Of a stretch of DNA of 64,000 nucleotides, positions 1 through 11,240 are shown piece by piece; position 1 is the first letter of the stretch, and each line of letters starts with the position of its first letter. The notes below the pieces were generated by a model. The model worked only from the letters and a program-made list of their open reading frames with translations, had not been told where the DNA came from and made no database searches. The stretch is from the sequence record OM386653.1; one strand, given 5' to 3'. Made by a program: the position numbers and the translations under genes. This stretch comes from Escherichia phage vB_EcoM_ESCO8.

Positions 1-330
1 ATTTGATAGTTTATTCCTTTGATGTTTTGTTGTTTGATAGTTATTAGCTATCAATATATAGCGGGATCTTCCGGTGATTATCTTCCCCTGTCCCCAGGTG
101 CCGCCCGTTCCATAATAATAATCAAAAGCAGGGTAAAAGGCAAGATAAAAAGCAAATTATTTCCTATGTGCTTTAAACGCTCTAGATAGCTTTATAACGG
201 CTTTTTCATCCTGGTAAGGTGATTAATCATCACTACCTTGTTTAAGCGGTTATAATCGGTTTTAGGCTGTTTTACGCCACCTTTACGCCTATTCTTTACG
301 TGTTGTTTCCATCGTGAAAAAAGAATACAA

Positions 331-8436: not shown

Positions 8437-8799
8437 TTATTCGTAAATTTTACCGCTTTCTACCCATACCATAACACGGCGCATGTTATCCCATGCATCT
8501 TGTCGCAGATTTAAGGCATGCAATTCTTCGGTTGTGCTCATACCTGGTACGGGCTTGCTATATGTTACAAAGAGATCGCCAGCATATTCATAAGCCAGGG
8601 TAAGATCACATTGAATCATCTTTTTAAGCATAGCATTAAGCATCATATTAGCGGCATGTTGATCACGTTTTAGCGGTAGCGTTGCGATCTGTGAGCGATA
8701 GCTTTCGATCCGTGCATCCACTGCATCACGTGGAAGATTTTTCACGTCGTCGCGGAAAGATACCAGGTTTAACATGATAGTATTGATTTGCTTGCTCAT
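8437..8799 (-). CDS. hypothetical protein
   Basis: ORF track 120 aa; leader hairpin 8822-8843 upstream. Confidence 0.55.
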   Translation of the reverse strand: MSKQINTIMLNLVSFRDDVKNLPRDAVDARIESYRSQIATLPLKRDQHAANMMLNAMLKKMIQCDLTLAYEYAGDLFVTYSKPVPGMSTTEELHALNLRQDAWDNMRRVMVWVESGKIYE

Positions 8800-8885
8800 T
8801 GCATTACCCTTTCTTTGATTTGGCGGGAAACCATTTCCCCGCCTTATGTGGTATATATTACAAAATTATTTTTAAGTGTCAAGCC

Positions 8886-9158
8886 TTAAAGCAAAAACGC
8901 TACATCTTGCGCTTTTAGTGTAGTGTCGATCATTTTCGGGCTTTTATAATCCACAAAGCGCGCGGTTTTTTCAATAACGAAGCCGAGATAATCTTGTTTA
9001 TTGAAATTACATTCTTTTTTAAATGTTTCCCGTGCCACGGTGATCGCTGCATCCAGGGATAAACGCCCATCAATATTGATGTTAGCGAAAGATCCGCCAC
9101 CGCGCATAGGTTTACCAGTGATGCCAGCTACGATCATTGATGCGCTATATGATGCCAT
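8886..9158 (-). CDS. hypothetical protein
   Basis: ORF track 90 aa; leader hairpin 9181-9200 upstream. Confidence 0.55.
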   Translation of the reverse strand: MASYSASMIVAGITGKPMRGGGSFANINIDGRLSLDAAITVARETFKKECNFNKQDYLGFVIEKTARFVDYKSPKMIDTTLKAQDVAFLL

Positions 9159-9210
9159 GATTATTTCTCTCTTCTGTTATGAGCGGCACTATTGCCGCCC
9201 TATGTGATAC

Positions 9211-9238
9211 ATCTTATCAGATTAAAAAACGTTGTCAA
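9211..9238 (-). promoter_or_regulatory. sigma70-like early promoter with leader hairpin
   Basis: Minus strand TTGACA-16nt-TAAGAT followed by hairpin GGGCGGCAATAGTGCCGCTC (9181-9200). Confidence 0.5.
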
Positions 9239-9246
9239 GAATATTT

Positions 9247-9342
9247 TTAAAAGATAATAACCGCTACTACAATCCAAAATGGAACGGCTAGAATGATAGC
9301 GTTAATCGTTCCAACCGTCAAGCTGTTTTCTTTCTTGATCAT
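9247..9342 (-). CDS. small hydrophobic peptide (31 aa)
   Basis: Manually read ORF MIKKENSLTVGTINAIILAVPFWIVVAVIIF; first ORF downstream of promoter 9470-9498. Confidence 0.3.
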   Translation of the reverse strand: MIKKENSLTVGTINAIILAVPFWIVVAVIIF

Positions 9343-9469
9343 CGTTATCAACCTTTTATAAGTAATGTTATTGTGACGGTGGATTGTGGAGATCCTCACC
9401 TTTGCCCGTCCTGCATTGCGCCCTCCTTTTGTTTATTGTCGTTGTGCCTCGCCCCCCTCGACAAGATGA

Positions 9470-9498
9470 ATAATACGCTACCAGGTGAGGAACGTCAA
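9470..9498 (-). promoter_or_regulatory. near-consensus sigma70 promoter (leftward, head of early gene array)
   Basis: Minus strand TTGACG-17nt-TATTAT; GC-rich ~120-nt leader follows. Confidence 0.5.
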
Positions 9499-9532
9499 CC
9501 CCTTTTTTAATCTTTTTTCATTTCTTTTTTGC

Positions 9533-9562
9533 TTGCTATCTATAAAGGAAAGGGGCTATTAT
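9533..9562 (+). promoter_or_regulatory. sigma70-like promoter (rightward)
   Basis: TTGCTA-18nt-TATTAT upstream of ORF starting 9610. Confidence 0.4.
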
Positions 9563-9609
9563 CTTTCTACCGCGCCAACCAGGGCGCACATCAAAGAAAG
9601 GGCGATACC

Positions 9610-9876
9610 ATGACAAATACTACTTTACACCTCATGCACTCATTAGGCTGGCAAGGCGGCACGGTGCACCAGGTAGCAAGCGCAACGGGCTTAAAGGTTG
9701 AAACCGTTCTCAACCTGGGCGATCATAAGGTGGAAGAAATAGATCATTTTGATACGTTCGCAAATGGTTATCTATGGGCTTGCAGTGGCGGCGGGGAAAG
9801 CAAGATCCCGCCAGGGGCGCGGGGCGACATGTATTTTTGGCTAGGTGTCCTATCCTGGCAAGAAAACAAAAAATAA
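9610..9876 (+). CDS. hypothetical protein (88 aa) in GC-rich island
   Basis: ORF track frame 9529..9876 trimmed to ATG with AAGGG-type RBS; local GC content clearly above surrounding AT-rich genes. Confidence 0.4.
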   Translation: MTNTTLHLMHSLGWQGGTVHQVASATGLKVETVLNLGDHKVEEIDHFDTFANGYLWACSGGGESKIPPGARGDMYFWLGVLSWQENKK

Positions 9877-9878
9877 TC

Positions 9879-9907
9879 TTGACAAGCCCAGGGATCGGGC
9901 TTATACT
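9879..9907 (+). promoter_or_regulatory. near-consensus sigma70 promoter (rightward)
   Basis: TTGACA-17nt-TATACT; spacer contains inverted repeat AGCCC/GGGCT; no obvious CDS downstream before repeat region. Confidence 0.5.
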
Positions 9908-10140
9908 GTTTTACATACAGAAGAGGAAGCGCCACCCCCACGGCGTAAAGGCGGGGCTAACATACCAGGGCACTACTGGTTGGAAGGTTGATCGCCGGTA
10001 GCTCGTCTAAAATAAATTTGTAAAGAAATGTAAAGATAAAAATAATCGCTTGCTTTTGTTGTTGGTTATGCTATTCTTATTGTATGGCGAGGGGACACGG
10101 GAGCGCGAGACAAACACCGCCCCTGCGCGTTATTCTCTAA

Positions 10141-10250
10141 ATGAGAAAATTCTCATTTGCTAATGATTCTCATTCTCTTACTGAGAATGATTATCACTTA
10201 CATACTTAAATGATAATGATTCTCATTTACAAATGAAAATGATTATCATA
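10141..10250. repeat. Cluster of Fur-box-like / ATGAGAA-TTCTCAT palindromic repeats
   Basis: Repeated units AATGATTCTCATT, GAGAATGATTATCA, AATGATAATGATTCTCATT, AATGAAAATGATTATCA resembling GATAATGATAATCATTATC. Confidence 0.45.
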
Positions 10251-10269
10251 CGCACACCCATAAAAACAC

Positions 10270-10480
10270 GAAATTGAACTTTTCATTTTTGATTTTTCTA
10301 CGGAAAAAGGCAAAAAACTTTAAATAAACTGGGGAATTTTTAAAAAATTGAAGTTTTCATTTTCAAAATCTGGATAGAAATACGTACAAAAACTTTAAAT
10401 AATTTTGACCAAACTTGAACTTTTCATTTTCAAAATTTGTACCCAAAAATCTGTAAAAACTTTAAATAATTTTGTCCTTT
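10270..10480. repeat. Three tandem ~70-bp direct repeats (iteron-like)
   Basis: Unit TTGAAC/G-TTTTCATTTTCAAAAT...AACTTTAAATAA recurs at 10274, 10348, 10415 with 67-74 bp period. Confidence 0.6.
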
Positions 10481-10688
10481 TTATAAAAATGATTTTACTG
10501 TTCTGTTATAAGTAGTAGTTAAGAGATAGTATGCCTTTTAAAGATCAGATACCATAGTCAAACAAACAAATTAAATACTTTATTAACAGAGTACAGAATA
10601 ATATTTACTCTGGATATATTATTCAGAGGGTGGATTTCCGTACATGAAACCCACACCCCTTTTTATAAAAATAAAAATTTTCAAAATA

Positions 10689-11240
10689 TCAGGAAATATC
10701 AGATTGTGCTTTTAGATAAACAGCAAGGTCTGTATGCCATTTTCCTAAAAGATTTTGTCCTTTCCAACAGTCCTTATTTTCCACATCACGATCCCACATT
10801 CCCATTTTGATACCATAAATAGAATCATAAGGGCTTGCCTCTACGAACTCCTTATCTGCGTAAGCGATAAGTTTATTTTTGAGATCTTCATTTTGTGTGT
10901 ATTTAAGATACAAACCACGCTTGACAATCTTCTCCCGTAAAGAAGTCCAAGTAGCTTCATCGTAATCTTTAACTAATCTACCTAGTCGCTTATAATATGC
11001 CTGTTCTTTTTCTCCTGTATATCTTAGATCTCCGGTTAAAATAGAAGATGCAATGTTGTAATCATAAAACAAACATGCTTTTCTCCACATCATATATTGT
11101 TCCACACAAGTAAATTCAACAGAACTTGTAATAGAATTATTATACTTGGGAGCTAAAGGTTCAATAAAAGATGATAGATACCAGTTGCTAAATTCATCTT
11201 TTGCCGAGAAGAAGAACACATACTTATCAGTAATCCGCAT
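10689..11240 (-). CDS. NADAR-domain protein (YbiA-like)
   Basis: 183 aa; motifs FFFS..EFSNWY, VEQY..W.KA, and C-terminal GIKMGMW...G.N.LGK.H align with E. coli YbiA-type NADAR pattern. Confidence 0.65.
   Translation of the reverse strand: MRITDKYVFFFSAKDEFSNWYLSSFIEPLAPKYNNSITSSVEFTCVEQYMMWRKACLFYDYNIASSILTGDLRYTGEKEQAYYKRLGRLVKDYDEATWTSLREKIVKRGLYLKYTQNEDLKNKLIAYADKEFVEASPYDSIYGIKMGMWDRDVENKDCWKGQNLLGKWHTDLAVYLKAQSDIS

Follow-up and report, generated by a model that had tools for sequence, protein, structure and literature searches.

A conserved control region with an unannotated RNA gene

The stretch of DNA analysed here, referred to as the window, comprises 64,000 nt of Escherichia phage vB_EcoM_ESCO8 (OM386653.1), and its control region around 9350–10135 contains a promoter-driven structured non-coding RNA of about 95 nt, here called RNA1. 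From left to right, the locus carries a leftward promoter for an array of small genes, a rightward gene for an 88-aa protein, the promoter of RNA1 (P1), RNA1 itself, a second rightward promoter (P2), and a repeat-bearing region that extends to 10688. By BLAST, the 1.2 kb around RNA1 is 99.9% identical to Escherichia phage outra and 97–99% identical to phi92, alia, VEcB, and other members of Justusliebigvirus (Stephanstirmvirinae); this phi92-like myovirus is of the phi92/rV5 type, and the GC-rich island forms its conserved control region. An initial guess from the repeats, that this was a first-step-transfer or injection-stop region like that of T5, was dropped when BLAST returned a phi92-like phage.

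A preliminary description, made from the sequence without database searches, had singled out a GC-rich island within a control region. The stretch 9350–10135 is the richest of its size in the window (47.5% GC vs. 37.9% window-wide), falling in the top 0.05% of 786-nt segments with none elsewhere richer; the RNA core (9914–10005) reaches 59.8% GC, and the repeat region (10136–10688) has 25.1%. Its role as a control region is borne out, and its promoters are conserved in relatives. Horizontal acquisition, suggested there as one possible source of the GC contrast, finds no support, as the entire layout is syntenic across Stephanstirmvirinae and Vequintavirinae; the GC excess is due to the GC-rich helices of RNA1 and a hairpin in the promoter spacer. 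Horizontal exchange does occur at a finer scale, where RNA alleles are swapped by a homing-endonuclease cassette. In the alignment, the order of elements is constant: P1, RNA1, a GTAAA-N5-GTAAA box, P2, a conserved block, palindromes, and genus-specific repeats.

The annotations of phi92 and outra show one rightward open reading frame (ORF; Phi92_gp224/outra_145) between the leftward small-gene array and a leftward gp223-like gene. The outra record has nothing annotated over the equivalent of 9877–10688, the alia record has two "repeat_region" features there, and none of the records examined annotates RNA1. To the right of the region, every gene lies on the opposite (leftward) strand, and transcripts from P1 and P2 are therefore non-coding.

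Conservation and extent of RNA1

RNA1 is conserved across two phage subfamilies. A sensitive BLAST search with 9877–10140 matched 234 phage records, from genera including Mydovirus, Seunavirus, Certrevirus, and Henunavirus and from phages whose hosts include Klebsiella, Proteus, Salmonella, Cronobacter, Pectobacterium, and Erwinia. The core (9910–10036) retains 82–85% identity in distant genera, in which the flanking genes cannot be aligned. When ten 3.1-kb Vequintavirinae loci were compared with the whole window, the sole DNA similarity was to 9910–10036, the palindromes, and the P2 block to 10157 (six loci). A covariance model of the RNA (R1) covers 9909–10008, scores 63–108 bits, and has a single match in the window and in each fetched locus, the cassette cases excepted.

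A structured RNA of about 200 nt starting at 9914 had been proposed. A conserved, promoter-driven structured RNA with compensatory changes is indeed present, but it is only about 95 nt long; the remainder to about 10135 holds the GTAAA box, P2, and a block that lacks a consensus fold rather than RNA1 structure. Two invariant anchors are separated by 52 to 63 nt, in ten different lengths that represent all three residues modulo 3. With such indels, no reading frame is conserved, in agreement with the earlier remark that no convincing ORF follows the third promoter. A small protein at 9845–9991 or 9774–10001 was likewise rejected, its frame being broken by indels.

Three oddly labelled records also contain the RNA region: it is 100% identical to this E. 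coli-phage-type sequence in Campylobacter phage A150 (MG065639.1) and 89–91% identical in Acinetobacter phage ABPW7 (OP562383.1) and Pseudomonas phage PsgM04F (OR584014.1). Their host labels look doubtful, or the phages look to have been propagated on contaminating hosts. In bacterial genomes, a scan with the tail pattern of RNA1, which is too short for that collection, gave 120 chance matches, none with the pseudoknot core.

Fold and covariation of RNA1

Structural parsing of 36 distinct sequences led to the following parts of RNA1.

9914..10008, plus strand: RNA1, structured non-coding RNA of about 95 nt (covariance model and covariation)
9914–9929, plus strand: leader
9930–9933 with 9942–9945, plus strand: S1, a 4-bp stem, CGCC/GGCG
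9935–9939 with 9953–9956, plus strand: S2, the pseudoknot helix, CCCC/GGGG
9957–9986, plus strand: hairpin P3, with its loop at 9969–9975
9987–10005, plus strand: unpaired tail, GUUGAUCGCCGGUAGCUCG

The CCCC in the 7-nt loop of S1 pairs with the GGGG seven nucleotides further on, forming an H-type pseudoknot whose linking loop is A-rich and includes two invariant A residues. In other lineages, S2 reads CCAA/UUGG or CCAG/CUGG, and in phage 4MG CUCC/GGGG. P3 is a long irregular hairpin with an A.A or G.A mismatch and a bulge, and its loop varies in length and sequence. The tail, AUCGCCGGUAG, with the consensus (G/A)AUCGC-GG-A, is nearly invariant, single-stranded, and more conserved than any helix, and it is kept in phages of E. 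coli, Klebsiella, Salmonella, Cronobacter, Pectobacterium, Erwinia, and Proteus.

The covariance analysis across related phages that the preliminary description had called for was run. In the alignment fitted by R1, 88.9% of cells are standard pairs, compared with 23–46% when the partners are slid by one to three columns; both sides change in 10 of the 19 pairs (P3, 8/11; pseudoknot, 2/4), and none of 500 shuffles reached the observed values. An alignment made by MAFFT, blind to structure, gave a similar picture, with 85.1% of cells paired, both sides changing in 7/17 pairs, and a score of 0.160 vs. ≤0.074 when slid. G-U pairs are present on the plus strand. The covariation supports the predicted fold in S2 and P3, and RNA1 combines compensatory changes with the absence of a conserved frame, as is expected of a structured non-coding RNA.

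Promoters and the predicted 5′ end of RNA1

Promoter-like sites were scored by hexamer matches out of 12 and compared with shuffles, and 15 were found vs. 7.7 ± 2.8 in the shuffles. The sites of the control region are as follows.

9470..9498, minus strand: leftward sigma70-type promoter, TTGACG-17-TATTAT (10/12), kept in alia, ESCO5, and contig L044
9533..9562, plus strand: promoter of the gp224-family gene, TTGCTA-18-TATTAT (9/12)
9879..9907, plus strand: P1, promoter of RNA1, TTGACA-17-TATACT (11/12), the best within 8500–11000
9884–9902, plus strand: GC-rich hairpin in the P1 spacer, terminator-like in the scan, fold energy −8.8 kcal/mol
10050..10077, plus strand: P2, TTGCTT-16-TATTCT, hexamers at 10050–55 and 10072–77

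The three consensus promoters reported earlier, the leftward one at the head of the early small-gene array among them, all lie where they had been placed, and their hexamers and spacing are kept in diverged relatives. Together with P2, they carry recognisable hexamers, spacers of 16–18 nt, and conservation in relatives, and are putative sigma70 promoters. P1 retains both hexamers and a 17–18 nt spacer in 27 distinct versions, with 18–22 nt between its −10 and S1 across relatives; it is the dedicated promoter of the roughly 95-nt non-coding RNA. In this phage, P2 is a weak promoter that the scan threshold excludes, and in relatives it comes nearer the consensus. Its hexamers stand at fixed spacing across 33 distinct sequences, and the sequence between them is variable.

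The hairpin in the P1 spacer is kept with differing sequences in most genera, often with GCAA or GAAA loops, and in Mydovirus and Seunavirus a hairpin encloses the P1 −35 instead. The scan lists it with the tail ATACTGTTTT, the U-tract being broken by the −10 hexamer. This hairpin probably terminates gp224 transcripts while overlapping the promoter, and RNA1 would therefore have its own defined, insulated 5′ end.

A homing-endonuclease cassette with a replacement RNA allele

Raoultella phage Ro1 (Mydovirus) and Escherichia phage cardinal (Justusliebigvirus) share an insertion of about 740 bp in the RNA1 tail, right after ...GATCGCTGGTA, with the cassette at 1595–2244 of the Ro1 locus (L009) and at about 1012–1652 of the cardinal locus (L018). 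The junction follows GGTA in both genera. The cassette encodes an HNH endonuclease (phrog_953, E = 7.6e-79), after which come a new TTGACA-17-CATAAT promoter with its own spacer hairpin and, at the end, a divergent RNA allele, "B", joined to the common tail and the downstream sequence of the respective phage. The truncated original RNA1 is the 5′ untranslated region of the HNH gene in both phages, and in Klebsiella phage P8734 allele B is alone at the site. Insertion into the most conserved stretch, together with a replacement RNA, is the pattern of a homing endonuclease that carries an immune replacement, and suggests that the phage needs a working copy of RNA1.

Two further observations concern the same site. 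Klebsiella phage KB57 (L004 1501–1602) has no cassette, yet its tail has the C-to-T change (GATCGCTGG) seen in the interrupted copies of Ro1 and cardinal, and may represent a cleavage-resistant allele. The record of Escherichia phage vB_EcoM-LTH01 (PP430345.1) ends with ...GGATCGCCGGTA and starts with GCTCGCC... (L289 1533/L290 1), that is, it is linearised exactly at the bond where the HNH cassette is inserted, which may be due to chance or to a hotspot of double-strand breaks in the DNA preparation.

Relationship of RNA1 to known RNA families

In Rfam, RNA from the window matched no family at threshold (E ≤ 1 over 2.5 kb; E ≤ 10 over 246 nt), and no curated model of riboswitch, ribozyme, tRNA, or tmRNA classes gave a match in Rfam or, for the window, in ARAGORN. 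A tRNA or tmRNA identity was considered and rejected, none being present in the window.

The nearest family is the Proteo-phage-1 RNA motif (Rfam RF03044), reportedly described by Weinberg et al. in 2017, which Rfam files as a small RNA (sRNA) gene. Allele B of Ro1 aligns end to end with RF03044 at 21.6 bits against a gathering score of 42; neither it nor the window RNA, which gave no match, reaches 42 bits. In architecture only, RNA1 shares the family's order of elements, namely a helix (CCAGG/CCUGG in RF03044) interleaved with a 4-bp stem, a second hairpin, and an unpaired tail. The family's hairpin loop, AUAAGCCGGUAGUGC, is not found in the variable P3 loop of the window type; the loop of allele B, AUAGCCGCAGGGC, is similar. 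More than 120 genuine Proteo-phage-1 loci were fetched, six of which were checked against Rfam at 62–94 bits. On canonical copies, the R1 model scored only 9–13 bits, with several of these weak matches exactly on the motif.

In both RNAs, the 7-nt loop of a 4-bp stem supplies the 5′ strand of a second helix and so creates an H-type pseudoknot; further 3′ come a hairpin, a linker rich in A or purines, and an unpaired conserved tail (CACCGGCAGCC vs. CGCCGGUAGCU). The crossing 4-bp stem of Proteo-phage-1, unmarked in the Rfam structure line, covaries in 68/81 canonical copies with 11 combinations. Unlike RNA1, Proteo-phage-1 occurs in 40–55 kb lambdoid phages, between early-region genes and lysis/terminase genes (11 loci by ORF listing), and continues for about 170–200 nt with further covarying structure. 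Four lambdoid contigs from IMG/VR (L050, L058, L070, and L099) have extra hairpins, such as TCGA/TCGA, CCGA/TCGG, and CTGG/CCAG, and in L058 two tRNA genes follow the RNA. The Rfam model may thus describe only the 5′ domain of a larger RNA. The motif often lies right after a terminator, and NinG is encoded upstream in the single locus examined by Pfam. The idea of a protein partner common to these loci and the window was discarded, as upstream phrog_3373 occurs in only 27 of the 85 canonical loci and lacks a homologue here. As judged from sequence, RNA1 resembles Proteo-phage-1 in architecture and falls outside the family by its membership score.

The 88-aa gene and the leftward early array

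9610..9876, plus strand: gene of the 88-aa protein, Phi92_gp224/outra_145, phrog_19316 (ORF, homologues)

The 88-aa ORF with its own rightward promoter, noted earlier as of unknown function, is a real gene, to judge from its homologues and the third-position bias of their differences. Homologues of the gp224 family number 21, with identity down to 41%, and the differences from the copy in contig L026 fall 18/13/40 on the three codon positions. The −35/−10 pair is found at the same distance from the start codon in eight relatives, some with only 41–69% protein identity. The AlphaFold model is a confident five-helix fold with a predicted local distance difference test (pLDDT) score of 93, and no match was obtained in Pfam or, by fold, in the PDB. 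In Vequintavirinae, the slot upstream of P1 (L004 1268–1453 and equivalents) encodes an unrelated 61-aa DUF7170 protein (PF23776, E = 1.2e-25); the neighbouring gene was therefore exchanged while RNA1 and its promoter stayed.

On the leftward side, the early leader (9396–9426, minus strand) has a perfect GGAGG, 5 nt, and an ATG that opens a six-codon mini-ORF (MQDGQR, stop), possibly a leader peptide or a ribosome stand-by site. Directly downstream of the leftward promoter is also a small ORF (9247–9399, minus strand) with a hydrophobic C-terminus and a length of 31–50 aa, depending on the start codon, which is unannotated in outra and has a second promoter-like site inside (9321–9293). At the far end of the early array (27–300, minus strand), a second module of similar layout points leftward and is clipped by the window edge. 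It has three CGTAAA(G/A) repeats, TTGCCT-17-TATTAT, a GC-rich block, and TGATAG-N7-CTATCA palindromes, and is weakly detected by a profile of the control region (E = 5e-4). A comparable second copy lies about 7 kb away, inverted, in some relatives.

The region downstream of RNA1

10020..10034, plus strand: GTAAA-N5-GTAAA direct repeat GTAAAGAAATGTAAA, exact match, 15 nt upstream of the P2 −35
10084..10135, plus strand: conserved block 3′ of P2, GAGACAAACACC ... CUGCGCGUUAUUC (alignment)
10158..10248, no strand assigned: four 15-bp palindromes TGAnAATnATTnTCA matching the Fur-box 7-1-7 motif
10270..10477, plus strand: three 67-nt direct repeats, iteron-like or unwinding-element-like, in a stretch of 22–25% GC
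10625..10664, plus strand: hairpin followed by UUUUUAU, candidate terminator of rightward transcripts (−11.8 kcal/mol, z = −2.13)

The GTAAA-N5-GTAAA box, which matches the consensus of CpxR boxes, occurs only once in the window, and one match per window also arises in 33/100 shuffles. In 14 of 20 relatives it stands at a fixed +14 nt after the RNA1 tail, and five genera conserve it, with a degenerate second half-site in Erwinia-type phages. No supported structure was found in the block after P2 (three pairs and −0.96 kcal/mol in RNAalifold; single-sequence z = 0.00). Pairing between this block and the RNA1 tail was rejected after a by-eye check of the alignments revealed no covariation.

The palindromes were compared with the 7-1-7 motif of Fur boxes, TGATAATnATTATCA, and the 19-mer consensus, GATAATGATAATCATTATC. 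Four sites within 91 bp match the 7-1-7 motif with one or two mismatches, the window as a whole having five such matches vs. 0.90 expected, and four of its five best matches to the 19-mer fall in 10158–10248. A Fur-like site is found downstream of RNA1 in 17 of 20 relatives, mostly about 125–130 nt after the tail. Such a cluster in the control region of a lytic phage could serve iron-dependent control or titrate Fur; a literature search found no report of phage Fur boxes.

The 67-nt repeat units contain GAACTTTTCATTTTCAAAAT and AACTTTAAATAA. Repeats at this place are genus-specific, as illustrated by a Certrevirus contig (L046, 6900–7110) with many GATCGAGACCC units, a pattern that iterons evolving together with an initiator would show. 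Together, the palindromes, iterons, and AT-rich repeats have the look of a replication origin, and the features by which an iteron-type or transcription-activated origin is recognised (repeats, an AT-rich region, and a promoter firing into it) are all seen in the sequence. The candidate terminator at 10625–10664 did not appear in a simple terminator scan.

Possible functions of RNA1

Tentatively, and with less than even confidence, we favour the reading that RNA1 is the cis-acting folded 5′ domain of a non-coding transcript directed at the origin, which engages a partner conserved among hosts. The P1 transcript would run through the GTAAA box, P2, the Fur-like palindromes, the iterons, and the repeats of 22–25% GC, and end near 10664. 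The RNA1 scaffold and tail would bind a host-conserved partner, most plausibly the transcribing RNA polymerase in the manner of the put RNAs of phage HK022, or else a replication protein. This binding would keep transcription going through a protein-laden region, and the resulting transcription would open or prime the replication origin. T4 oriF/oriG, the T7 primary origin, and ColE1 RNA II are origins activated or primed by transcription and provide precedents. The tail, invariant across hosts, fits a conserved host partner, and the cis-acting role is further favoured by the non-coding nature of the transcripts and by the palindromes, iterons, most AT-rich DNA of the area, and plus-strand candidate terminator downstream. 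The two folded domains of RNA1 beside its promoter, with an A-rich strand that could occupy a helix groove, also recall put RNA (PMC9378689).

Several points weigh against this reading. The transcript, its 3′ end, the origin, and the binding partner are all predicted, and no paper mapping the replication origin of these phages was found; a literature search on Vequintavirinae transcriptomes, origins, and Proteo-phage-1 returned nothing relevant. No DnaA box or IHF core is present in 9800–10700. Antitermination past 10664 would gain nothing, as the rightward transcripts there run head-on into leftward genes. In lambdoid phages, the related Proteo-phage-1 RNAs belong to the late region rather than to an origin. 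As to the fold itself, the sequences used are kin to one another, and the shuffle control is therefore generous and overstates significance; S1 and the tail never vary and so contribute no covariation evidence; and the single-sequence fold of RNA1 is no better than that of shuffles (z = −0.21).

A somewhat less probable but still serious possibility is that RNA1 is a stable trans-acting sRNA, cleaved in the AU-rich stretch 10006–10050, whose tail binds and titrates a host protein or RNA; such an RNA could be an anti-defence decoy, a mimic of a tRNA 5′ half (GCCGGUAGCUCG resembles an acceptor strand and D-stem), or another sponge. The filing of the nearest Rfam family as an sRNA gene, the insulated promoter and the unpaired tail conserved without variation across hosts, and the cassette's supply of a full replacement gene with its own promoter all fit such a role. 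So does the position of the canonical relatives in the lambdoid late region, in one case ahead of tRNA genes; accessory genes are often inserted in that region. However, the tail is not followed by any intrinsic terminator or protective 3′ hairpin, its constant distance of 14 nt from the GTAAA box and P2 suggests coupling in cis, and neither a ToxI-like repeat nor a tRNA or tmRNA was found. The mimicry of a ToxI antitoxin, as in Pectobacterium phage phiTE, was rejected separately, as no ToxI-like sequence was present in a 142,349-bp contig presumed to be phiTE. RNA1 is unlikely to be the 5′ domain of a replication primer precursor like ColE1 RNA II, in which its fold would decide whether the downstream transcript makes a persistent RNA-DNA hybrid in the AT-rich repeats. 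The order of promoter, structured RNA, iterons, and AT-rich stretch, the differences of the iterons among genera, and an AAA ATPase, encoded 2.5 kb rightward and weakly resembling helicase loaders and clamp loaders, would suit it, but P2, located between RNA1 and the repeats, could supply a primer alone, no antisense regulator was seen, and the replication start here is itself a prediction.

It is improbable that the conserved element works as DNA, the hairpin and GGATCGCCGGTA^GCTCG being a recognition, nicking, or cleavage site for packaging, an origin nick, or simply homing, and the compensatory changes preserving a DNA hairpin or cruciform. The HNH junction after GGTA in two genera, the LTH01 record linearised at the same bond, and a tail more conserved than any helix speak for a DNA site. 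The pseudoknot and the G-U pairs on one strand fit RNA better, a consensus promoter stands at a fixed distance upstream in every relative, and just 1 of the 234 records ends at this bond. Least probable is a riboswitch-like sensor whose ligand, bound in the pseudoknot, frees or sequesters the tail and thereby sets read-through into P2 and the repeats. The compact H-type pseudoknot with two invariant A residues in its linking loop is suggestive, and GGCG could alternatively pair with CGCC of the tail in competition with S1; covariation does not back that pairing, searches up to E ≤ 10 matched no known riboswitch class, and neither a terminator nor a ribosome-binding site follows RNA1 as an expression platform.

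Significance and comparison with known phage systems

Phages of the rV5, phi92, and PVP-SE1 types are widely isolated and are candidates for therapy and biocontrol. RNA1, the strongest DNA-level similarity between their two subfamilies in the comparison of ten 3.1-kb loci, is a concrete and experimentally addressable object that is unannotated in the records examined. The Fur-like and CpxR-like boxes are two unexpected links to host physiology, and the homing cassette with its spare RNA gene amounts to a natural experiment.

Free-standing HNH endonucleases of the seg/mob kind mediate intron-less homing in T-even phages. The cassette described here likewise sits at a single exact bond within a highly conserved target in two genera, and its flank is likewise converted to a divergent, presumably resistant allele. 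Unlike in the T-even phages, what is targeted is a gene for a non-coding RNA, and the insert brings a complete promoter and a substitute RNA rather than a protein-coding segment.

Like the T4, T7, and ColE1 origins, the control region has one or two promoters firing into an AT-rich, repeat-bearing non-coding region. Those origins were mapped by experiment, whereas the one proposed here is a prediction from sequence features, and those of T4 and T7 have no such conserved folded RNA domain.

The putL and putR RNAs of HK022 are cis-acting elements of about 70 nt with two domains that mediate factor-independent antitermination; put RNA binds the beta′ zinc-binding domain of RNA polymerase in cis and suppresses downstream terminators (PMC9378689). 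RNA1 is put-like in its length (about 70–95 nt), its position next to a promoter, its two folded domains, the first having a strand that could lie in a helix groove, and non-canonical pairs in its stems. It differs from put in having no sequence similarity and in folding as a pseudoknot rather than as two stem-loops with a triplex; long operons with terminators lie downstream of put, and about 650 nt of non-coding DNA downstream of RNA1. Both are encoded by phages, and both could use a host-conserved partner. A wider unification is doubtful but conceivable, in which RNA1 and Proteo-phage-1 would form one broad superfamily of phage pseudoknot RNAs whose target would be a host machine common to Enterobacterales and Pseudomonas/Burkholderia hosts; one example is RNA polymerase, engaged without additional factors as by put. 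In rV5/phi92-type phages, such an RNA would couple transcription to the firing of a Fur- and Cpx-responsive origin, and a homing endonuclease would be able to invade it only with a substitute allele.

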